From positions 129,756-193,755 of the forward strand of contig CAWGYL010000002.1 in assembly GCA_963826885.1 (NCBI GenBank): DNA of 64,000 nucleotides, in the 5' to 3' direction. Source of the DNA: Nitrospirota bacterium. GTDB taxonomy: Bacteria; Nitrospirota; UBA9217. The notes below the pieces were generated by a model. The model was not told the DNA's origin, did no database searches, and saw only the letters and a list, made by a program, of their open reading frames with translations. Position 1 is the first letter of the stretch, and every line of letters starts with the position of its first letter. Shown in pieces: positions 1 to 59,232 of the stretch. The translations under genes and the position numbers were made by a program.

Positions 1-371
1 TCGGTCTTTAACTTTTTTATCAAGCAAATTTATCGATTTAATGGGAAACACCACTTACATGATAAAATCATGAATGTTTAGAAATCTCTTTGCTACGCAG
101 AAAGCCCCACGGGCATTTAGGCCTATTTATAATCTACGTTTAACCTAAAGGTAGCACTGCCTCTCTGATTGTCAAGCCGAGAAAGCATTTTAAATCAGGA
201 ATAGGCATAAATAGTGTATGGCAAAAGGTGGCCTCCGTTTCAATAGTTTTTCTACAAACATTTCTCCTGATTTACCGTGGCGAACAATTTATCCTCCCGT
301 GATCATAACGTGACCTTCGCATGATATCTTTCATACAGTTAACGAGAATGCATTGCGAAAAAGGTGATAAA

Positions 372-734
372 ATGAATAGAGCATTTTTCGCGATATCCGG
401 TGTGCTGCTTCTTCTTGCACTCTTCTCACTGTTCCTGTATTCGGGCGCGATGACTGGCGCTGCGACTTTGTTCCCCGTTCCTGGATACGGGACAAACCAA
501 GCACAGGAGAAGGGATTGTCAATAGTGATTTTCAAGGTCAAGTGTTATGAAGAAGGAAAGGTGGCACTCCAAGGACTAAATGGAATCCAGAAAATCGAAA
601 CGGGCTTTCATGACGTTCAGGAGACAGATACTGTTTATTACGATCCGAAGGTGATCACGATCGAAGAGATGGAAACGGCCTTGAAGAAGGCGGGAACGTA
701 TGTGGAAACAATGAAGAAGAAAGAGAGGAATTGA
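372..734 (+). CDS. Membrane-anchored protein with a heavy-metal-associated (HMA)-like ferredoxin-fold domain that has a single Cys, not CxxC
   Basis: N-terminal TM segment ([17 protein letters not shown]), then a beta-alpha-beta-beta-alpha-beta-like segment [26 protein letters not shown]...[12 protein letters not shown]. An RBS-like aaaggtga precedes the ATG at 372. The stop overlaps the start of the msrA fragment, so the two are translationally coupled. A degraded paralog sits upstream of the intact msrA at 57418-57530. Confidence 0.4.
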
Positions 735-964
735 TCATGTTTGTGAAATTGTTGATAGGAACATTGCTGGTTCTGCCGCTCATGGTTACCCGAGCCAATG
801 CAGGCACAATGCCGCCTGTTGAAAAAGCAACATTCGCGGGAGGGTGCTTCTGGTGCATGACCCCGCCTTTCGAGAAACTGGACGGAGTAAAAGAGGTCGT
901 ATCCGGCTACACCGGCGGGCATACCATCAATCCCACCTATAGTCAGGGTTTGGCAATTCTTTAA
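731..964 (+). pseudogene. msrA: Truncated peptide methionine sulfoxide reductase MsrA, N-terminal ~70 aa only
   Basis: Signal peptide plus [11 protein letters not shown]...GV..V.SGYTGG...NPTY, aligning with the full-length paralog at 56803-57414. Homology ends after NPTY and the ORF stops at 964. An IS110-family transposase gene lies immediately downstream. Confidence 0.6.
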
Positions 965-999: not shown

Positions 1000-3395
1000 T
1001 AGGAGGCGGGATTACTCCCGCCGTCCTCCCACACCACATACTATAACGCTCCTGTCAAGAAAAAGATTCAATTTGCTTTTATTCAATAGGATAACTTGAT
1101 CAGTATATTAAAAACGCACCTCTCTCTTTCGGCATTTACGCCGTTATCACTTTTATCGACGAGTCTCTCGCAACCAGACGAACGACATCTCTGATAGTTA
1201 TGTCACCTATGCGGCGTGCCATATGGCCGCCAAGAATACCTTATCCAGATTCTATCGTTCAAAACGAGAGGCCCTGTATTGTAGGTGACGAGGTCAACTG
1301 CCCTCAACTAACTTGAGCACGGGCTCTCCCGTCGAAATAAATTTTGCGTACACCATTATGCGGCTGCTTTTCGTTCTACCCGCTTTTCCAGTTTAAGGTA
1401 TTTCGAGTCGAAAGATTCCTTCTTTTTCATCAGCGTCCAAGCAATAATCAAGAGCTTCGCGGCGAGCTTCACCCTCATTTTCGTGGCAATGCCTTTCTCC
1501 TTCGCCCGTCCAGCAAGCTTATTCGTAAAATAGGGAATAAAGTCCTTACTCTTAATCGAGGCAATGAACGCTGCCTGGTATAACGCGCACCGCAGATCCG
1601 CCTTGCCCTGTTTGGAGATGATCGGCGTTGCCCTGTTTGACGTTCTTCCGCTTCTCTGTGCGCAAAGATCAAAACCCGCCAACCGCAAAACCTGTTTGCC
1701 GCTTGTAAAGCGGTGGGGATCGCCGATGGCTCCGAGGACCTTGGCGGATACATCCGGCCCAAACCCAGGAATGCTCAAGAGGTACGTATACTCCGGAAAC
1801 TCAAGACAGGCATTCTCAAGCTTGTCTTCAACCGCTTTGATCTCCTGCCTAACCTGTTTCAAACTATCTACTGCAATCTGAGCTTCATGGAAGGCCGCCT
1901 CTCCCATGGTGCAGCCAACGGAATTGACCGCGGTCCTCCAAATCGCTCCCACTCTGCGTTCCCGAGCCAACGTCATTTTGCCTGGTGCTACGGTACGGCA
2001 GAAATCATCGTATTCCATGCCGGCGATAGCGGAAGGATCCAGACATTCCCGCACTACCGCCAGGGTCTCTGACGATCCGTAGTACGTATCCAACTCAGGG
2101 AAATACTGTGCAAGGATATGATTGCGAATATACGCGCTTATGCCGTGTTCCCGCTTCTTCAGTCGCCGCTTGACTGCGTTTAGTACGCGCACGTTTTGAA
2201 GCGTCATCAGGGGATATTCATAAAACATGCATTTCCCCTGTGCAATGAGATCTGCGATATTAGCCGAATCCTTGTCATCGTTTTTATCCCATCGACCGTT
2301 CAGAAGTTGCCGGTTGTTCTTTACTGCCATACCGCCAACAAAAACGACCATCAGACCGCATTTGAGCAGATGCTCCGCCAGGGGCTTGTGGTAGTCTGCC
2401 GTCGGCTCGATCCCGAAAACGACTTTCGGCAGGCTGTATTGAACCTTGACACGCTCCACATGCGCATCCAGCTTTTCGAATCCCTCGATCGTGTTGTCAA
2501 AGATCACATTCCTTAAAAGCGTCTTGCCTTGCGCAGTACCAAAAAACGCACGGTGCTTCTCTTTCGCCACATCAATCCCAATGATCAAATATTCTTCCGA
2601 ACCACGAATTTCTTTCTTCAGTTGCCGAAATTGCTGAAGTCTGATATCATCAATACAGTTCATAGAAGCCTCCTGCCCTTGAATTTAGTTTCGTCATAAA
2701 CTAATTCTTAGCAGGAGGTTTCTATTTTGGATAGTCTTGAAGAAAATATTTCCTATACTTTAATGGGGAAATATAACCTCATGCTCTATCCATATATAAC
2801 ACGTACGTGCCGTTCGGCATACGGCGGTTCCTGTCTTTCCGCTCTTTCGGTGACCTTGTCGCCTCCTGTTCTATAAGCACCTGACTTTACCTCGCGGATT
2901 CCGTCCGCTACTTCCAGCCTAGGCCCTCTTGCGGGGCTTGTGCTCAGTACAGATAGAGATTCGGTCTCGAACAGTCCGACAAGTTCGGCCCTTCATCCCG
3001 TTGGTGCGGGACTAATACGGCCTCTGCTGACTTCTACCGATCCATCTCAACACCTTACGATGTCGATAGCACATGGCAGAACGGCAGACCTCCCAGGGTA
3101 AGACGCATGACCTTCATCCCATATACCCGCCGCATCTACTTCCACACCTTCCGGATGGTTATCGGGCTTTGAGTCTTTATGCCCTCTCGCCCAAGTGTGG
3201 CTGCCTCATATGCGGTTTCTGTTCGTCAGGCCGGGACTTTGCTTACAGCTTCCTTCAGATTCCGGGTCGCCCCGGACACCCTTGCTGTTCGGCTAACGGT
3301 TCCTCCCATCAAGGCCCATAAAGGACTTTCACCTTCGAGTCGCCAGTCAGTTACCAATCTGACCAGCCTGTAAAATACAGAGCGTCATGCCTGGC
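1000..3395 (-). mobile_element. IS110-family insertion sequence; ends not determinable from sequence alone. It may cover only part of this span
   Basis: The transposase gene is flanked by about 390 bp of non-coding DNA on its 3' side (965-1355) and about 730 bp of ORF-free DNA on its 5' side (2664-3395). It abuts the truncated msrA. IS110-family elements lack terminal inverted repeats, so boundaries cannot be read directly. Confidence 0.35.
1356..2663 (-). CDS. IS110-family (DEDD) transposase
   Basis: N-terminal IIGIDVAKEKH and a DKNDDKDSANIADL motif. C-terminal LLSIPGFGPDVSAKVLGAIGDPHRFTSGKQVLRLAGFDLCAQRSGRTSNRATPIISKQGKADLRCALYQAA is typical of the IS110/IS1111 C-terminal domain. RBS ggagg lies 6 nt upstream of the ATG. 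Confidence 0.85.
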   Translation of the reverse strand: MNCIDDIRLQQFRQLKKEIRGSEEYLIIGIDVAKEKHRAFFGTAQGKTLLRNVIFDNTIEGFEKLDAHVERVKVQYSLPKVVFGIEPTADYHKPLAEHLLKCGLMVVFVGGMAVKNNRQLLNGRWDKNDDKDSANIADLIAQGKCMFYEYPLMTLQNVRVLNAVKRRLKKREHGISAYIRNHILAQYFPELDTYYGSSETLAVVRECLDPSAIAGMEYDDFCRTVAPGKMTLARERRVGAIWRTAVNSVGCTMGEAAFHEAQIAVDSLKQVRQEIKAVEDKLENACLEFPEYTYLLSIPGFGPDVSAKVLGAIGDPHRFTSGKQVLRLAGFDLCAQRSGRTSNRATPIISKQGKADLRCALYQAAFIASIKSKDFIPYFTNKLAGRAKEKGIATKMRVKLAAKLLIIAWTLMKKKESFDSKYLKLEKRVERKAAA

Positions 3396-3398
3396 ATA

Positions 3399-3440
3399 CA
3401 TAAAAAAGTGCCAATTCTTCTCGGAATTGGCACTTTTTGT
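3399..3440. terminator. Bidirectional rho-independent terminator hairpin
   Basis: aaaaaagtgccaattc-ttctcg-gaattggcacttttt: a perfect 15-bp stem with T-runs on both strands, located downstream of the minus-strand gene that ends at 3532. Confidence 0.6.
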
Positions 3441-3531: not shown

Positions 3532-3990
3532 TTACATGTGGTGCTCATGGCCCATGGGCATTTCGCTTGCCCCCTGAAGGGTAATTGGTAGTTCCTTCAC
3601 TCCCGTTTTCTCGAAGACCAGCGTCACGTTGAATTTCGAACCTACCGTCATTGTCATAGGCATGTCCTGGATCATGATATGGCTGCCGCCCATCTTTAAT
3701 TCCAGATTGCTTTTCGCGGGGACTTCTATCGTGTTCATATTTACCATGCGTTCACCTTGCATGACATGGAACGAAGCTTTTGCTCCCGGTATGTCAGTCT
3801 TTACTTCCTTGAGAACATCCGATCCACCTTGATTCCTAATATTCATGGTCACCATAGCTTCTCCCATGATAGCAGGAGACAATTCGGCATTGACCCCGTC
3901 AATGCTGATCTGCGGCGGACCGCTCTGGCATGAAGCAAGGATCATGGTGGTTACGAACACGGATATTACCAATAGCTTTGATTCCCTCAT
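3532..3990 (-). CDS. Lipoprotein, copper chaperone PCu(A)C-like (DUF461-like), with a Met/His-rich C-terminus
   Basis: Lipoprotein signal (ILASC) in a ~150-aa protein. Spaced Met/His motifs (HVMQGERMVNM...HIMIQDMPMTM...MPMGHEHHM) resemble the H/M copper-binding motifs of PCuAC. A TlpA-like redoxin is encoded two genes away. Confidence 0.5.
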   Translation of the reverse strand: MRESKLLVISVFVTTMILASCQSGPPQISIDGVNAELSPAIMGEAMVTMNIRNQGGSDVLKEVKTDIPGAKASFHVMQGERMVNMNTIEVPAKSNLELKMGGSHIMIQDMPMTMTVGSKFNVTLVFEKTGVKELPITLQGASEMPMGHEHHM

Positions 3991-8519: not shown

Positions 8520-8636
8520 GCCGGAGCATGTCTACCGGGTGTTGTATTTCAATTATATCACCTACATCACTGCGGTTGCATGTCTTCCTTCAGCGAGAGA
8601 GGTTTGAGATTGACAGAAGATAAAAATTTATGCCTC

Positions 8637-9100
8637 TGCGTCGCAAAACCGCGTCTCTTCAGGGCGGGGATATAAGGCGCTGATTGCAACGCAACCAAAA
8701 AAAGTTTTTTTTGATAATTAAGTAAACAATTGTTCACCGCTTACTATAGGCGTGAAATTAATCAATTTCCGCGAATCCTCGTAGGTGATTCCATTTTCAC
8801 TTGCATGACATTCTTACCGTTTGCCGAACCGGCAGCTACGGGGGACAGACAATTGTTGTGCGACATTCTGGTAAGTCACTGATATTTTGATGTTTATCTT
8901 TCGCTTGTTATTACTCGCACTTGTTTCCCTATTCCATGAATAAACATATGCTATTATTTATGAAACGGTTTCGCAGCCATCATCGCTCATGATAGCAACT
9001 AGGTGAGCATTTGTCTACTCAAATATCAAAACAATGCTTTTTGGGTTGTGTTGCAAGTAGCGCCTTATATCCCCGCCCTGAAGAGACGGGGTTTTACTGC
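8637..9100. mobile_element. MITE-like non-autonomous element (~460 bp) with ~50-bp terminal inverted repeats
   Basis: Left end aaaccgcgtctcttcagggcggggatataaggcgctgattgcaac (8645-8690). The right end (9047-9098) is its reverse complement with only a few mismatches. The interior is AT-rich and ORF-free. Confidence 0.55.
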
Positions 9101-9147
9101 GCAGATGGATAAATATGGTTGAAGAATGGGAAAAGTCGAGGTGAACT

Positions 9148-24327: not shown

Positions 24328-24912
24328 CTAATAAGTGATCACGTTTACGCCAAACAAACGGAAATTATACTTAAGATCGCAATAACCTTTAGAATCGAGA
24401 CTGAAGGCCTTGGGATTCAATATTAGTTCAACACAAGAGGCGGGGCTATGCATCACCGCATCCATCAGTTTTGTTGACTTTATGGCATAGAGCTTACCAT
24501 CATCCGACGCTATGTATATGGCCCCATCAGCACCGATGACGGGGGAAGAGTACAAATAACCTCCTATCGTATAACTCCACTTGAGCCTGCCATCTGGGTT
24601 TATTGCATAGAGGTTGCCATCATCCGACGCTATGTACACAGTCCCATCTGCACCGATGACAGGGGAGGAGTACAAGTTACTTTCTGTTGCATAGTTCCAC
24701 TTGAGCCTGCCATTGGGGTTTATTGCATAGAGTTTACCATCATTCGACGCTATGTACGCGGTCCCATCTGCAACGATCGCGGTGGAGGATGACAAGGGAC
24801 TTTCTATTGAATATCTCCACTTGCAAGCGCCATCGTTCAACAAGGTCCTTCGAAATCGGATAGACACAGCCCTGAAGAAGCATGACAGAGCCAAAGAGCA
24901 AGACAATCGTTT
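24328..24912 (-). pseudogene. PQQ-like beta-propeller repeat lipoprotein with an apparent frameshift just after the signal peptide
   Basis: A lipoprotein signal MKTIVLLFGSVMLLQGC starts at 24912 in one frame. The repeats NDG.LYAINP.GRLKW.Y...YSSPVIGADG.VYIAS continue in another frame (the ORF-track frame 24328-24906). The frame switch occurs around 24830-24850. Confidence 0.5.
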
Positions 24913-38106: not shown

Positions 38107-38300
38107 CAAGAGACAAGAACGAGGAGTGAATGCCCGCCTCTCATCTTATATTCACAATTTACAAACCGATTTGTTGATTGTTTCAAAAAATGAGAACTAC
38201 ACGCTTGTAGGTGGATCTCGGAGAGCCAAGATTAGTCTACTACAGAATCTATACACCCCAATTCGCCTTTCTGACATTAGACAGAGTCTGTTTATTAATT

Positions 38301-38434
38301 AACAAAGCAATATATTCTAACCACCTATAGCGATGGGATATTCAAGGGTATTACAACAAATAGAGAATGGATATCGCACAACAAGATACATCTATAATTC
38401 TTCACCTCAATTAAATTATGATTTCTGAGAGATT
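38301..38434. repeat. 134-bp repeat R, copy 1 (direct repeat of 47569-47702)
   Basis: aacaaagcaatatattctaaccacctatagcgatgggatattcaagggtattacaacaaatagagaatggatatcgcacaacaagatacatct...atttctgagagatt matches 47569-47702 with 2 mismatches. Confidence 0.85.
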
Positions 38435-40967: not shown

Positions 40968-41110
40968 AAATGGAAACTCGTTTGCTACAGGAAGGATCTG
41001 CTGACAGAAAACATTATTACAAAATGCAATGATACATGTGATACAAAATGAATTCTGTACCTTCGCTAATATTATATGAAACTGGACTTCACTTTCTAGT
41101 CTGCAATTTC
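40968..41110. repeat. Interspersed modular repeat, B-type copy 1
   Basis: aatggaaact...caggaaggatctgctgacagaaaacattattacaaaatgcaatgatacatgtgatacaaaatgaattctgtaccttcgctaatattatatgaaactggacttcac is about 85-90% identical to 59090-59232. Confidence 0.75.
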
Positions 41111-45169: not shown

Positions 45170-45590
45170 ACGTGACATTTTCAGCAAAAAACGTAACTGG
45201 GCGATTGGCAACGGCTTTGAGCTAACTTATGAAAAATCAAACTATTTTTTCGATTCTGTCTATTCTGCGGTTTCTGTAGATTCTGCCCTTGGAGCAAAAT
45301 TCTACGACAATTCTACGACAGTCTACGGCACCAGCCATACACACCAATTCACCTTTCTAACATTAGACGGTGTCTGTTTATTAATTTCACGTGGAGTTGA
45401 AATCATCCGGCACTATCCTGTGTGGGCGGGTCACAGCGGCAAAAAGAGCGGAACTTTGTCGTCAGAAAATATGCAAAACAATAGCACGATCAATCAACAT
45501 TTGGTTTCATTCTTTCGCAAAATGTTCGTCAATTGACCCGGGTTCGTGCAAATGCTCTTGCATACATTGCGTCATTTTATGCATCATCTT

Positions 45591-47528: not shown

Positions 47529-47568
47529 ACCTCGTATTCTTACAAAAAATTATATCACAGGTCGCGGT

Positions 47569-47702
47569 AACAAAGCAATATATTCTAACCACCTATAGCG
47601 ATGGGATATTCAAGGGTATTACAACAAATAGAGAATGGATATCGCACAACAAGATACATCTAATATTCTTCACCTCAATTAAATTATGATTTCTGAGAGA
47701 TT
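47569..47702. repeat. 134-bp repeat R, copy 2 (direct repeat of 38301-38434)
   Basis: See copy 1. Two mismatches over 134 bp. It lies about 200 bp downstream of the stop of the minus-strand hybrid kinase gene. Confidence 0.85.
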
Positions 47703-53317: not shown

Positions 53318-54346
53318 TTAGTTCGTCCGCAGCAAACTTGCATCATAAGGTTTTCGGTCACGAAGCACGTAAAAGATAATCTCTATCAATTTTCTTGCTA
53401 ATGCGACTACTGCAGTCTTGTTGCCTCTTCTCCTGGCTATACGTTCATACCATTTCCTCAATGGTTTGCTTTCACTGTTTGTACTTCGTAATATTGCATG
53501 CGCACTCTGAACTGCTACGTGCCTGACTTCGCTTCGTCCCTCGCGGGTTATATGGCCATAATCAGCCCGCTCTCCACTACTAAACACACTTGGCACAAGA
53601 CCGCAATAACTCGTTAACTGCTTTGCTCGCTTGAATCGCGTTATGGTCGAGATCGCGGCATAATAGGTCTTGGAGGACACCTCGCCGACTCCGGGCACGC
53701 TCTTCAATAACGCAACATCCTTATTTTGGTAGTCCGCAATCACGTCATCCAGCACGTCTTTTTGCTTTCGGAGCTCTGCAATCGCTTTCCCATAACTCTC
53801 AACGATTGGATTTAGGTGTTTTGGAACGCTTTTATTCTCCTGGAGCCTTGTAAAGATCGATTCATCATCGAAAGCTTTTGTCTTGAGTTTTATTCCTTCT
53901 TGTCGCAACATGCCCCGTAGATGGTTCTTAAGGCATGTTGAACTCTTTAAAAGTTGGTGTCGAGAGCGTAAGAGATCGCGTAACTCTCGGCTATCGCCCT
54001 CTGCCATATACACTCTTTCGGGCAATTCGTCTATCCGTAATAATTTTGCAAGGAATATGGCATCTACCTTGTCGGTCTTCTTCTTGTTCTTGGCAATGAG
54101 CTTTACCTTGTTAGGATTAACAATATAAACGCTGATTCCCAGCTTCTTGAGCGTATCATGTATCCAACGGCTATGGCCGCCTGCCTCGACTGCTACCTTT
54201 ACAGGCTTATTCATCCATCGCTTGAAATACTGCCGATAGCCATCCTTATCCGTAGGGATCTCTTGGCTCTCGACCTTTCTTCCTTTGCCATCGGTGACGT
54301 ACACATAACTGCTTTTCTCAGATACATCGCATCCAATGTAGAACAT
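53318..54346 (-). CDS. IS110-family (DEDD) transposase, second copy, a different family member from 1356-2663
   Basis: FYIGCDVSEKSSYV N-terminus, KTDKVDAIFLAKL, and C-terminal LKSVPGVGEVSSKTYYAAISTITRFKRAKQLTSYCGLVPSVFSSGERADYGHITREGRSEVRHVAV. RBS aaggagg 7 nt before the ATG at 54346. Confidence 0.85.
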   Translation of the reverse strand: MFYIGCDVSEKSSYVYVTDGKGRKVESQEIPTDKDGYRQYFKRWMNKPVKVAVEAGGHSRWIHDTLKKLGISVYIVNPNKVKLIAKNKKKTDKVDAIFLAKLLRIDELPERVYMAEGDSRELRDLLRSRHQLLKSSTCLKNHLRGMLRQEGIKLKTKAFDDESIFTRLQENKSVPKHLNPIVESYGKAIAELRKQKDVLDDVIADYQNKDVALLKSVPGVGEVSSKTYYAAISTITRFKRAKQLTSYCGLVPSVFSSGERADYGHITREGRSEVRHVAVQSAHAILRSTNSESKPLRKWYERIARRRGNKTAVVALARKLIEIIFYVLRDRKPYDASLLRTN

Positions 54347-54665
54347 GGCGGCTACCTCCTTACTGTGATATTTGTTACTTCTAATCACATGGTAGCACCG
54401 AATATTTGTTTTCCCCCTCCTTCATAATATCTACAAGTATGGAATGTCACCCATTTGAAGGCTCCCTGTCAAGTGAAAAAATTACCCCGTGACGAGAAAA
54501 TGATATTTTCTCGAGTGGAGGTGTTTGATCGTCTGGAGTTTGATGTTGATGTGAAGATACGTATCTTCAAAGATGAAAGGCCGTAGCTCTGCCTTTTCCC
54601 GGCGCTCTTTGACGTGGCAAAAAAAAACGTCAAGGGCAGTCAAGCAGATCCTATTAGTCGTACTG
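54347..54665 (-). ncRNA. Candidate bridge-RNA-encoding left end of the IS110-family element. Inference only
   Basis: About 320 bp of ORF-free sequence immediately 5' of the transposase gene, the position where IS110-group elements encode their non-coding guide (bridge) RNA. No structure was computed. Confidence 0.25.
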
Positions 54666-56802: not shown

Positions 56803-57414
56803 TTAATGTCCCGCCTCATTACCCCAAAGTTCCTTAAGCCGCCGGTCACGACCGCACGTGGTACGATAAAATTTATAACGAATCGGGTTCTTCTTGTAAT
56901 AATGTTGGTGGTAATCTTCGGCGGGGTAGAACCCGGTGGCTTGCACAATTTCTGTTGCTATAGGTTCTTTAAAGGTCTTATTCTTCTCCAAAAGCGCCTT
57001 TGACTGCAATGCCAACTGATGCTGTTCTTCTGTGTGATAAAAGATTGCACTTCGATACTGATGTCCTGAATCACAGAATTGGCGGTCTTGAGCTATTGGG
57101 TCAATATTATGCCAAAAAACCTTCAGGAGTTTCTCATATGACACTTTTATCGGGTCATAGACGACCTGAATTGACTCGGCGTGTCCGGTCCCTCCGGCTG
57201 AGACCTCTTCATATGTCGGGTTCTTTTTCTGTCCACCTGTATAGCCGGATGTGACCGATACCACACCAGGAATCTCATCAAAGGGGTGTTCCATACACCA
57301 GAAGCATCCGCCCGCAAAGGTCGCTTTTTCAAGATGTGGCACACTGCCTGCGGTGACCCGAGTAACCACGAACGGCAGGACCAGCAATGTTGCCATCATT
57401 AATTTGTCGAACAT
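56803..57414 (-). CDS. msrA: Peptide methionine sulfoxide reductase MsrA, secreted/periplasmic form with signal peptide
   Basis: Signal peptide, then [12 protein letters not shown] (catalytic Cys), SGYTGG, and the full MsrA fold through ...AEDYHQHYY. 203 aa. Confidence 0.9.
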   Translation of the reverse strand: MFDKLMMATLLVLPFVVTRVTAGSVPHLEKATFAGGCFWCMEHPFDEIPGVVSVTSGYTGGQKKNPTYEEVSAGGTGHAESIQVVYDPIKVSYEKLLKVFWHNIDPIAQDRQFCDSGHQYRSAIFYHTEEQHQLALQSKALLEKNKTFKEPIATEIVQATGFYPAEDYHQHYYKKNPIRYKFYRTTCGRDRRLKELWGNEAGH

Positions 57415-57417
57415 GGT

Positions 57418-57530
57418 CGGTTCCTCTCTTTCTCTGTTACTGTTTCCGCATAGGTTCCCCCCTTTTTCAACGTCGTTTCCAATTCTTCAATCGCAATCAC
57501 CTTCGGATTGTTGCTAAAAAATAAGCGACC
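57418..57530 (-). pseudogene. Degraded remnant (last ~35 codons) of a paralog of the HMA-like gene at 372-734
   Basis: The minus-strand translation ...LFFSNNPKVIAIEELETTLKKGEPMRKQ* aligns with the C-terminus ...[32 protein letters not shown] of the 372-734 product. An in-frame stop lies just upstream. It sits directly 5' of the intact msrA, mirroring the arrangement at 372-964. Confidence 0.4.
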
Positions 57531-57673
57531 ACCACAGCGTTCCTACGACGTGTTTGGGTTTCGCTGTGCGGTCGCTATTCACCCCCCTGAGGGTTTGATG
57601 TCACATGTCACCACCTAAGTCGCCTTCTTCCCCGCGATCGCTAGGCTTAGTTCGCTACCGCTTTCACTCCTTC

Positions 57674-58372
57674 CTAGGCGGCCTTTTCCATGAGCGCCCT
57701 GGCGGCCTTTTCGATGAGTGCGGCCACTGCTTTCGGCTGCGACACGTAGATCGCGTGACTGCCTGCGACCTCGATGACAGTCGAACCAGCGCGCTTGGAC
57801 ATGAAGCGCTGAGCCGCCGGCGGGATCATCTTGTCGTCGGTGGTAACCAGGTACCAGCTCGGCTTGGTCTTCCAAGCCGCCTCGCTGATCGTGCCGTTGA
57901 GCGCGTCCAGGCCCCATGGGACTTGGGAGTCTGCCATGAATGCGGCCTTTTCAATGTCCACGTCACCCGCGAATGAGGCTGGGAACTTCGCCTTGTCGAG
58001 TAAGAGATATCCGTCCTGCGGCGCCAGTATTGGAGGCACAGGCGCGCCCGGCGGTGGATCCTTGATAAGCGTGGACACAGACTCACCCTTGTCCAGAGCA
58101 AAGGCGGTGATATAGACAAGCCCCGCTACCTTTGGATCGTTGCCGGCTTCGGTGATCACTGCTCCGCCGTAGGAGTGGCCGACGAGAACCACTGGGCCAT
58201 TCTGTAGGGCGATAATGCGCTTGGTTGCGGCGACATCGTCGGCCAGAGATATCGTCGGATTCTGAACGATGCTGACCATGTAGTCGTCCTTCTTCAGGAT
58301 CTTATAGACACCTTCCCAACCAGAGCCGTCCACGAAGCCACCATGGACGAGAACGATATTCGTTGTTTTCAT
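57674..58372 (-). CDS. Alpha/beta-fold hydrolase
   Basis: IVLVHGGF...LVGHSYGG (nucleophile elbow GxSxG) ...GSHAIY. 232 aa. Confidence 0.7.
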   Translation of the reverse strand: MKTTNIVLVHGGFVDGSGWEGVYKILKKDDYMVSIVQNPTISLADDVAATKRIIALQNGPVVLVGHSYGGAVITEAGNDPKVAGLVYITAFALDKGESVSTLIKDPPPGAPVPPILAPQDGYLLLDKAKFPASFAGDVDIEKAAFMADSQVPWGLDALNGTISEAAWKTKPSWYLVTTDDKMIPPAAQRFMSKRAGSTVIEVAGSHAIYVSQPKAVAALIEKAARALMEKAA

Positions 58373-59089: not shown

Positions 59090-59232
59090 AATGGAAACTA
59101 CAACTGCCTTAGAAGAGGAAGGACTCGGTGACAGAAAACATTATCACAAAATGCTATGATACATGATACAAAATGAAATTTACACCTTCGCTAATATTTT
59201 ATGAAACTCGGCTTCACAAGCTTGTACTTTCC
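59090..59232. repeat. Interspersed modular repeat, B-type copy 2
   Basis: aatggaaactacaactgccttagaagaggaaggactcggtgacagaaaacattatcacaaaatgctatgatacatgatacaaaatgaaatttacaccttcgctaatattttatgaaactcggcttcac; see 40968-41110. Confidence 0.75.

Follow-up and report, generated by a model that had tools for sequence, protein, structure and literature searches.

Two loci in a 64-kb stretch of Nitrospirota DNA (64,000 nucleotides (nt) of contig CAWGYL010000002.1; hereafter the window) carry sequence from the same kind of gene cassette, in which a gene for a small exported protein with an HMA-like fold stands directly upstream of a gene for a secreted methionine sulfoxide reductase (Msr). At copy 1, the HMA-like gene is intact and the reductase gene is broken off near its start, whereas copy 2 has a complete msrA gene, here called msrA2, preceded by a short remnant of an HMA-like gene. 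The original prediction regarded the two loci as paralogous cassettes being pruned to one functional copy of each gene, with a deletion associated with a nearby IS110-family insertion sequence (IS) behind at least one truncation. We arrived at a different account, which is probably the best explanation of the whole: a conserved module of the HMA-like gene and msrAB lost most of its second gene by deletion at copy 1, mobile elements entered the neighbouring DNA independently, and copy 2 is a mosaic. The conservation of the gene pair, the breakpoints, the element boundaries, and the mosaic pattern are demonstrated by the comparisons described below, in which L-numbers denote the related loci and metagenome contigs fetched for comparison with the window.

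The HMA-like gene is paired with a secreted MsrAB in related genomes

In seven related Nitrospirota loci (L010/L015, L011, L013, L014, L016, L140, and L141), a secreted msrAB gene begins within a few bases of the end of the HMA-like gene. An msr partner follows the HMA-like gene in every related locus with sufficient sequence. The original prediction was right in proposing a two-gene module, but the partner is not MsrA: in all six loci uncut by a contig end, it is a secreted MsrA-MsrB fusion of 354–361 residues, and the partner in L011 is cut at 338 residues by the end of the contig. Both PF01625 and PF01641 were found in the MsrAB proteins of L010 and L141. The stop codon of the HMA-like gene and the start codon of the msr gene lie 2 nt apart and have a Shine-Dalgarno sequence in common. 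The HMA-like proteins of L140 and the window share 91% identity, and the msrAB of L140 continues beyond codon 91. Judged from these sequences, the tight pairing of the HMA-like gene with msrAB is conserved in this Thermodesulfovibrionales-like group of Nitrospirota. Our literature search found no description of an HMA/msr operon.

Beyond the HMA-like gene and msrAB, no synteny of the flanks was detected among the related genomes, and no pre-deletion locus could therefore be reconstructed. In three metagenome-assembled genomes, a gene identified by domain search as encoding a membrane-anchored molybdoenzyme (L010:3110-4732, L013:2047-3717, and L014:155-1774) is located upstream of the pair on the same strand. 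The encoded proteins of 540–556 residues, with mutual identities of 85–89%, combine a membrane region of several helices at the N-terminus with a twin-arginine-like motif and a molybdopterin domain of the sulfite-oxidase family. The window lacks the gene for this molybdoenzyme, which is a possible MsrP-like partner.

A small exported HMA-fold protein with a single conserved cysteine

The HMA-like gene of the window (372-734, plus strand) is an intact open reading frame (ORF) for an exported single-cysteine protein of 120 residues. The protein has 115 close homologues, and the few of them with a source name are labelled Nitrospirota. The family is small, with about 180 representative clusters, and no fusion of HMA-like and Msr domains was found in the best 150 of the 180 representative-cluster matches. 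An N-terminal hydrophobic helix or signal peptide is followed by a linker and a beta-alpha-beta-beta-alpha-beta domain. In the AlphaFold2 model, the linker is disordered and the domain comprises strands at residues 50–56, 72–80, 83–90, and 110–114 and helices at residues 59–67 and 97–107, with block-mean pLDDT (predicted local distance difference test) values of 86–95 over residues 51–110. As modelled, the domain would have the ferredoxin-like fold of HMA domains, with the secondary-structure order that defines it. MerP (1osd), ATP7B, and HMA7 were the top Foldseek matches of the model, with TM-scores of up to 0.78 normalised by the target. No Pfam family, the PF00403-type HMA profile included, matched the sequence at E <= 0.01. 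The NCBIfam matches were weak and below cut-off, being limited to UxxU_metal_bind (selenoprotein-type) and MerTP (MerP-type), and the PDB profile search returned HMA domains at weak E-values of 0.03–0.6.

Cys58 is invariant across the 24 sequences, out of the 115 homologues, in which its conservation was scored (alignment A1). The CxxC metal-binding loop expected between strand 1 and helix 1 is not present: the family consensus reads KVKCYDEGK, in which the second Cys position is occupied by Glu. The loop thus has C-Y-D/E-E where CxxC is usual, and C58 is the only conserved cysteine. From the adjacency of the genes, our best guess is that the HMA-like protein is a periplasmic accessory of MsrAB that binds metal or acts via its single thiol.

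By its sequence, the HMA-like gene of the window still looks functional. We found no support for relaxed selection on this surviving gene. The ratio of nonsynonymous to synonymous substitution rates (dN/dS) against L140 is 0.18, equal to the value between intact cassettes, and the two deviations (D60E and Y81D) at 38 columns that are at least 93% conserved are not exceptional, as 29 of the 115 family members have at least as many. Another candidate, that the HMA-like protein is a shortened N-terminal half of MsrA, arose from an hhalign comparison, in which C58 falls on the catalytic Cys of MsrA and YDP on YDP (probability 14%, E = 0.002). At so low a probability, and with structural matches that favour HMA, it remains a weak lead; the likeness may reflect a distant kinship of two ferredoxin-like folds, or chance. 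A region of NCBIfam NF041383 (approximately 139–231) is matched by both the HMA-like protein and MsrA. Stand-alone HMA-like paralogues of 115 residues without an msr gene were also observed (L012/L017, L018, L019, and L014:7501-7761); one of them adjoins a radical-SAM/DUF3641 gene, and another adjoins an OmpR-type two-component system.

The msrAB gene of copy 1 breaks off after codon 68

Two bases past the TGA of the HMA-like gene, ATG 737 opens a 75-codon ORF on the plus strand (737-964). We placed the breakpoint of copy 1 by alignment with the orthologues (alignment A2), in which homology stops after codon 68, at position 940 of the window. Codons 1–68 (737-940) are accordingly an msrAB stump, and codons 69–75 with the stop codon (941-964) are unrelated DNA. 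The original prediction, which had this gene stop at about 70 codons beside an intact HMA-like gene, was correct about the intact gene and needs adjustment for its neighbour, in which a 68-codon homologous part lies within a 75-codon ORF. The ORF covers only positions 1–41 of the 153 positions of the PMSR profile and reaches 50 bits with TIGR00401, for which the cut-off is 108, and it is therefore not a full-length MsrA. Neither is it a bifunctional MsrAB with PMSR and SelR domains. Copy 1 has no MsrB part, and no MsrB domain was found anywhere in the window, so that the supposed retention of one functional copy of each gene does not hold there. The stump is 84–91% identical in amino-acid sequence to the N-termini of the 360-residue MsrAB proteins of L010 and L013 and 63% identical to msrA2. 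Because it is nearer to the former, copy 1 is the orthologue of the conserved module. The start codon, the Shine-Dalgarno sequence, the signal peptide, and the GCFWC motif are all retained in the stump. The stump has a dN/dS of 0.45 against L140, where intact orthologues give 0.15 over the matching codons; the counts behind these values are small.

The truncation itself, as originally predicted, withstood scrutiny. A frameshift or an indel as the cause of the short gene was rejected, because neither the full MsrA nor a full MsrAB orthologue, used as tblastn queries, picked up another piece of the gene in any of the frames of the 64-kb window. An assembly artefact was likewise rejected, because two independent assemblies carry the 940/941 junction: an ENA contig (L008) is 100% identical over positions 1-1039 of the window and a JGI contig (L009) is identical over 178-1045. 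Nor is the short gene likely to be a normal stand-alone form, given the length of the six complete orthologues.

A 53-nt spacer (941-993) separates the msrAB break from the 3' end of a group II intron, and on the minus strand it constitutes the 3' exon of this intron. Comparison of the spacer with the fetched loci, the remainder of the window, and the orthologous msrAB genes gave no significant similarity. We also considered that it might be a degraded continuation or the 3' end of msrAB. The best local match, in L016, has p of about 0.03 without correction and is absent from the closest orthologues, and it was treated as chance. Most simply, the spacer is original DNA downstream of the terminator of the next gene, which encodes a PCuAC-type copper chaperone.

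A group II intron and an IS110 element are nested beside the break

The PCuAC-type copper chaperone gene (3532-3990, minus strand; PF04314, E = 9.5e-16) is convergent with the cassette. Its intrinsic terminator, a hairpin followed by a U-run (3404-3437, minus strand; -21.4 kcal/mol, z = -6.6), is the 5' exon and the insertion site of the intron. This terminator hairpin and the one at copy 2 were judged by RNA folding (kcal/mol and z) after a simple terminator scan had missed both, probably because A-U pairs lengthen the stems into the T-run. Copper-related genes cluster near copy 1: besides the PCuAC gene, an HMA_2 gene (PF19991; L007:731-1102) is found on contig L007 some 7 kb before the window begins.

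The intron is located on the minus strand in two parts, 2799-3400 and 994-1038, which together make up about 644 nt, and its 5' end at about 3400 directly follows the PCuAC hairpin and U-run. The 5' part contains domains 1 to 4 (D1–D4) and a putative domain 5 (D5). The Rfam models of D1–D4 match at 3276-2988 on the minus strand, with 147 bits for RF02001 (group-II-D1D4-3; gathering score 32) and 67 bits for RF01998 (D1D4-1; gathering score 35), thereby identifying a group II intron, and D5 lies at approximately 2832-2799. The 3' part contains the putative domain 6 (D6) hairpin (1031-996), which folds at -26.7 kcal/mol with a single bulged A, and ends in ...UACCCGAU. More than 120 metagenome contigs (L020-L139 among them) contain an exact copy of the 28-nt D6 hairpin GGAGGACGGCGGGAGTAATCCCGCCTCC, and many of these matches fall at contig ends. 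All listed contigs with this 28-mer share an upstream 34-nt hairpin and the bulged-A hairpin, and all diverge right after the same terminal sequence (CCCGAT). Because these hairpins are common to more than 120 contigs diverging right after CCCGAT, we read them as D5 and D6 followed by the 3' end of the intron. Rfam RF00029 found no D5/D6 match in the window, in L073, or in L118, intact intron copies included. The D6 hairpin family points to a very widespread intron family, and we rejected the possibility that the hairpin at 996-1031 is an end of the IS110 element or a terminator, because it is better read as domain 6 of this widespread group II intron.

No intron-encoded reverse transcriptase (RT) or maturase was found in the approximately 644-nt intron of the window, and the copies in L073 and L118 are equally short and have no ORF. 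A relative in L139 carries an ORF for an RT and maturase between D4 and D5, and the window intron is an ORF-less derivative. Intact copies free of any IS occur in L073 (100% identical) and L118 (97.9% identical), and the L118 copy also begins right after a hairpin and T-run. Identical or near-identical copies with other flanks were found in L073, L118, L034, L067, and L098. The population sampled here, or populations closely related to it, thus carry the intron in multiple copies. Class C group II introns typically insert after terminators.

The IS110-family element of 1,760 bp (1039-2798, minus strand) interrupts the basal stem of D5 on its 3' strand and is bordered by TGT at either end. Its transposase ORF (2663-1356, minus strand; 435 residues) has the DEDD_Tnp_IS110 and Transposase_20 domains of the family (PF01548, E = 1.5e-18; PF02371, E = 2e-17; NF033542, 152 bits against a cut-off of 140). 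We set the ends of the element against the IS-free intron copies in L073, L118, L034, and L067. The insertion lies between ...CGTACGTGT and GGTGTGGG..., and the intact copies pass straight from ...ACGTACGTGT into GGTGTGGGAGG.... The contig L008 stops at 1039. The contig L009 departs from the window after 1045 and has at the identical junction a related but different IS end (L009:1-130; about 75% similar), which suggests a subfamily that targets this intron sequence by site-specific insertion. No terminal inverted repeats were noticed by eye in the ends of the element. A bridge RNA was not found by Rfam or by a 7-mer search of both non-coding ends against the target, the latter being a weak test because real guides are shorter and split. 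An exact look-up of the transposase found no record, and no other copy was present in any fetched locus. None of the ten titles listed by a literature search contained the term group II intron, and no account of an IS110 element within such an intron came to light there. Elsewhere in the window (53318-54388, minus strand), an unrelated transposase gene of the IS110 family (342 residues, annotated in L002-L004) is located beside a UbiB-like kinase gene, and tblastn with the 435-residue transposase did not detect it.

These boundaries bear directly on the role of the IS110 element. The distance of about 400 bp from the msr break given in the original prediction is correct for the transposase ORF, but the end of the element at 1039 is only about 98 nt away. 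Between the 940/941 break and the 3' end of the intron (994) there are 53 nt, and no end of a mobile element is found at the junction; for this reason, the visible IS110 element did not make the break. The intron and the IS each keep both of their own ends intact, and therefore neither of them deleted adjacent DNA. The IS-associated deletion put forward in the original prediction is thus contradicted by a clean IS110 insertion, bounded by TGT on both sides, inside an intron that itself ends short of the break.

The msrA2 gene is a mosaic of two msr families

The msrA2 gene (56803-57414, minus strand) encodes a complete, full-length MsrA of 203 residues, with 222 bits for PF01625 (cut-off 23.7) over positions 1–152 of 153, 208 bits for TIGR00401 (cut-off 108), and a GGCFWCM motif. 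Upstream of it, only 57509-57420 is homologous to the HMA-like gene. This remnant, placed by alignment A4, is an HMA-like pseudogene of 97 nt (57415-57511, minus strand) that comprises the last 30 codons, with 70% amino-acid and 77–82% nucleotide identity, and retains the Shine-Dalgarno sequence of msrA2. Its stop codon has been lost by a change from TGA to CGA. About 8 nt before the remnant ends the terminator of an alpha/beta hydrolase gene (57674-58372), a hairpin with a U-run (57519-57580, minus strand; -26.7 kcal/mol, z = -2.9). The original prediction of an intact msrA at copy 2 is confirmed, and its estimate of about 35 remaining HMA-like codons is reduced to 30.

Nucleotide alignment of the two cassettes revealed homology between 640-859 and 57511-57292 (78.6% identity over 220 nt, E = 2e-50), and the first 70 MsrA residues of the two copies are 62.9% identical. 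The closest relatives of msrA2 are, however, not cassette genes: they belong to a large family of secreted stand-alone MsrA proteins of 200–203 residues, some of which are labelled Thermodesulfovibrionales. We compared msrA2 with nine stand-alone MsrA and four cassette MsrAB proteins in three segments. Codons 1–27 (57334-57414, minus strand), which encode the signal peptide, are 0–15% identical to the stand-alone proteins and 41–52% identical to the cassette proteins. The relation is reversed in codons 28–70, with 93–100% identity to the stand-alone and 65–72% to the cassette proteins, and in codons 71–203, with 84–89% and 52–57%, respectively. The mature part as a whole (codons 28–203; 56803-57333, minus strand) thereby belongs, at 84–100% identity, to the stand-alone 202-residue secreted MsrA family of Thermodesulfovibrionales, and the signal-peptide segment is cassette-derived. 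Nucleotide searches gave the same division. The HMA tail with the leader matched only cassette loci, at 77–82% identity (77–80% for the leader, with no match to L142-L144), whereas the mature part matched the stand-alone loci over its full length at 77–84%. No HMA-like sequence was found upstream of the stand-alone MsrA orthologues, whose neighbours are msrB, nothing, or a second msrA.

Since the leader is cassette-like and the mature part is stand-alone-like, msrA2 is a recombinant with about 180 nt of cassette DNA rather than the surviving half of a sister cassette. The original view of the two cassettes as paralogs is not supported, because the mature part of msrA2 is 84–100% identical to the stand-alone family and 52–72% identical to the cassette MsrAB proteins. 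A 42-nt stretch that codes for 13 residues is 83–93% identical between the cassette and stand-alone families, and it is a plausible crossover site on the basis of this conservation. In L148, whose MsrA is 90% identical, the junction is the same as in the window and also lies next to an alpha/beta hydrolase terminator. In L147, whose MsrA is 94% identical, only about 36 nt of the HMA remnant are left, next to a different gene. Because the junctions of L147 and of the window and L148 differ, the HMA-like part must have been trimmed more than once. In this limited sense, the lineage of copy 2 does support the pruning proposed in the original prediction, but not its reciprocity.

A proposed sequence of events and its alternatives

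From these observations, we infer an order of events and a recombination mechanism, as we do the function of the HMA-like protein. At copy 1, a deletion or rearrangement would have removed msrAB from codon 69 on, fusing codon 68 to DNA that lies past the terminator of the convergent PCuAC gene, at a distance of 53 nt, and leaving the HMA-like gene intact. In a separate event, the ORF-less group II intron would have landed in the U-tract of the PCuAC terminator, and the IS110-family element would then have landed at the base of its domain 5. At copy 2, a cassette fragment that supplied the HMA-like 3' end, the ribosome-binding site (RBS), and the signal-peptide codons would have been linked to the coding part for the mature protein of a stand-alone msrA, with the crossover most likely within the highly conserved stretch coding for 13 residues. 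The upstream HMA-like part might have been trimmed later by further deletions abutting the ends of neighbouring genes.

Several points weigh against this account. The 53-nt spacer matched none of the sequences compared with it, and a version of the locus free of both the IS and the intron was not found. A mobile element that has since been lost may have made the 940/941 junction, and recombination between two copies of the intron or the IS could have brought together flanks with no earlier connection. The mosaic event could be read in two directions, either as the 5' end of a cassette grafted onto an msrA or as an msrA part converting a cassette. The search covered the window, so an intact msrAB or msrB could exist elsewhere in the genome. 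The putative functional coupling of the HMA-like protein with MsrAB is deduced from the neighbouring position of their genes in a few related metagenome-assembled genomes, and stand-alone 115-residue paralogues exist (L012/L017, L018, and L019).

Among the rival explanations, homologous recombination between two copies of the intron (about 644 nt) or of the IS110 element is unlikely. It would mean that the left flank, made up of the HMA-like gene, the stump, and the 53 nt, and the PCuAC gene were never neighbours and that the remainder of msrAB lies elsewhere. The intron is indeed a multi-copy element, with the identical or near-identical copies of L073, L118, L034, L067, and L098 in different flanks, and in L009 the identical junction bears an IS end that is related to the one in the window but distinct from it. 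The 940/941 junction is nevertheless located 53 nt outside the intron and would still require a separate break event, and no 3' fragment of msrAB was found in any retrieved locus. We consider quite unlikely the reading from which the analysis started, with two old paralogous HMA-like/msrA cassettes pruned reciprocally and the IS110 element truncating msrA by an adjacent deletion. Cassette-derived sequence at both loci, broken on opposite sides, an IS110 element about 98 nt from the break, and the independent shortening of the HMA-like remnant in relatives would all fit it. The IS is, however, flanked on both sides by contiguous intron that matches the IS-free copies base for base, with nothing deleted beside it. 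Moreover, the mature part of msrA2 comes from another MsrA family, whose members have no HMA-like gene, and the gene lost was an msrAB, of which no MsrB domain is left in the window.

It is very improbable that the short forms are themselves functional, as a secreted 75-residue peptide with GCFWC and a 33-residue ORF made from the HMA tail. The stump does keep its start codon, with the Shine-Dalgarno sequence, the signal peptide, and the catalytic motif, and two other assemblies contain it unchanged. With 41 of 153 profile positions, however, most of the fold is missing, all six complete orthologues have 354–361 residues, and the dN/dS of the stump against L140 (0.45) exceeds that between intact orthologues (0.15), albeit on small counts. 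The HMA remnant has lost its stop codon, and the window and L148 differ at 5 of its 30 residues. The deletion at copy 1 with independent mobile elements and a mosaic copy 2 thus remains the account we prefer.

Other repeats in the window

Three tandem 120-nt repeats lie at 24479-24838, of which the other two are 83% and 73% identical to the first, and they overlap an ORF on the minus strand (24328-24906). Dispersed non-coding repeats were also observed at 38234-38434, 45320-45386, and 47568-47702, at 40989-41092 and 59116-59217, and at 8626-8738 and 9002-9114. They comprise a 135-nt pair (99% identity), a 67-nt pair (84%), two adjacent pairs (87–88%) 18.1 kb apart, and a 113-nt inverted repeat with 83% identity.

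Relation to known systems and implications

Extracytoplasmic MsrAB enzymes with co-encoded partners are known from Neisseria PilB (Trx-MsrA-MsrB), the periplasmic MsrAB of Haemophilus influenzae, and the Streptococcus MsrAB operons with CcdA and Etrx-type thioredoxins (PMC9404787, PMC6210582, PMC7034828). The pair described here resembles these systems in that the gene for a secreted MsrA-MsrB enzyme stands beside a gene for a small exported accessory protein. Unlike in those systems, the accessory protein has an HMA fold with one conserved cysteine (C-Y-D/E-E) rather than a thioredoxin fold with CxxC, and no CcdA or DsbD gene adjoins the pair. With HMA metallochaperones such as MerP, CopZ, and the N-terminal domains of copper ATPases, the protein shares the predicted fold and a cysteine at the start of helix 1, and it is exported like MerP. 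It differs from them in having neither a CxxC/MxCxxC loop nor a Pfam HMA match.

The intron is similar to bacterial group II introns that insert after terminators, a behaviour of class C, and to their ORF-less derivatives in its D1–D4 matches, its D5-like hairpin, its D6-like hairpin with a bulged A, and a 5' exon hairpin with a T-run in two independent copies. It is unlike them in that the window copy has no RT ORF, is only about 644 nt long, and has its D5 broken by an IS. IS110-family elements are recombinases guided by bridge RNAs (PMC11208160). The element in the window is like other members of the family in its DEDD and Transposase_20 domains and in a short repeated core (TGT) at both junctions, but it differs in its target inside domain 5 of a group II intron, of which the ten titles listed gave no account.

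We tentatively suggest that the HMA-fold protein is a dedicated periplasmic partner of MsrAB, acting in metal sensing or as a thiol relay, and that together with the molybdoenzyme it forms an undescribed envelope island for methionine-sulfoxide repair. On this proposal, which we hold possible but rather doubtful, the partner would still be under selection in the window after the loss of its enzyme, and a stand-alone MsrA would have captured the leader and RBS of the cassette.

In summary, the decay events themselves, a deletion, a mosaic gene, and nested mobile elements, are ordinary. Their mapping corrects a tempting story: the gene was not cut by the IS beside it, and the second locus is no decaying twin of the first. 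It also provides base-level boundaries for three nested events, with a terminator, then an ORF-less group II intron, and then an IS110 element. The msrA2 gene is a clear natural case of the capture of a signal peptide and an RBS by recombination at a conserved active-site motif. The small exported HMA-fold family, which lies outside Pfam, consistently accompanies secreted MsrAB in Nitrospirota, and the two together offer a concrete candidate for the supply or regulation of Msr enzymes in the periplasm of bacteria other than the well-studied pathogens.

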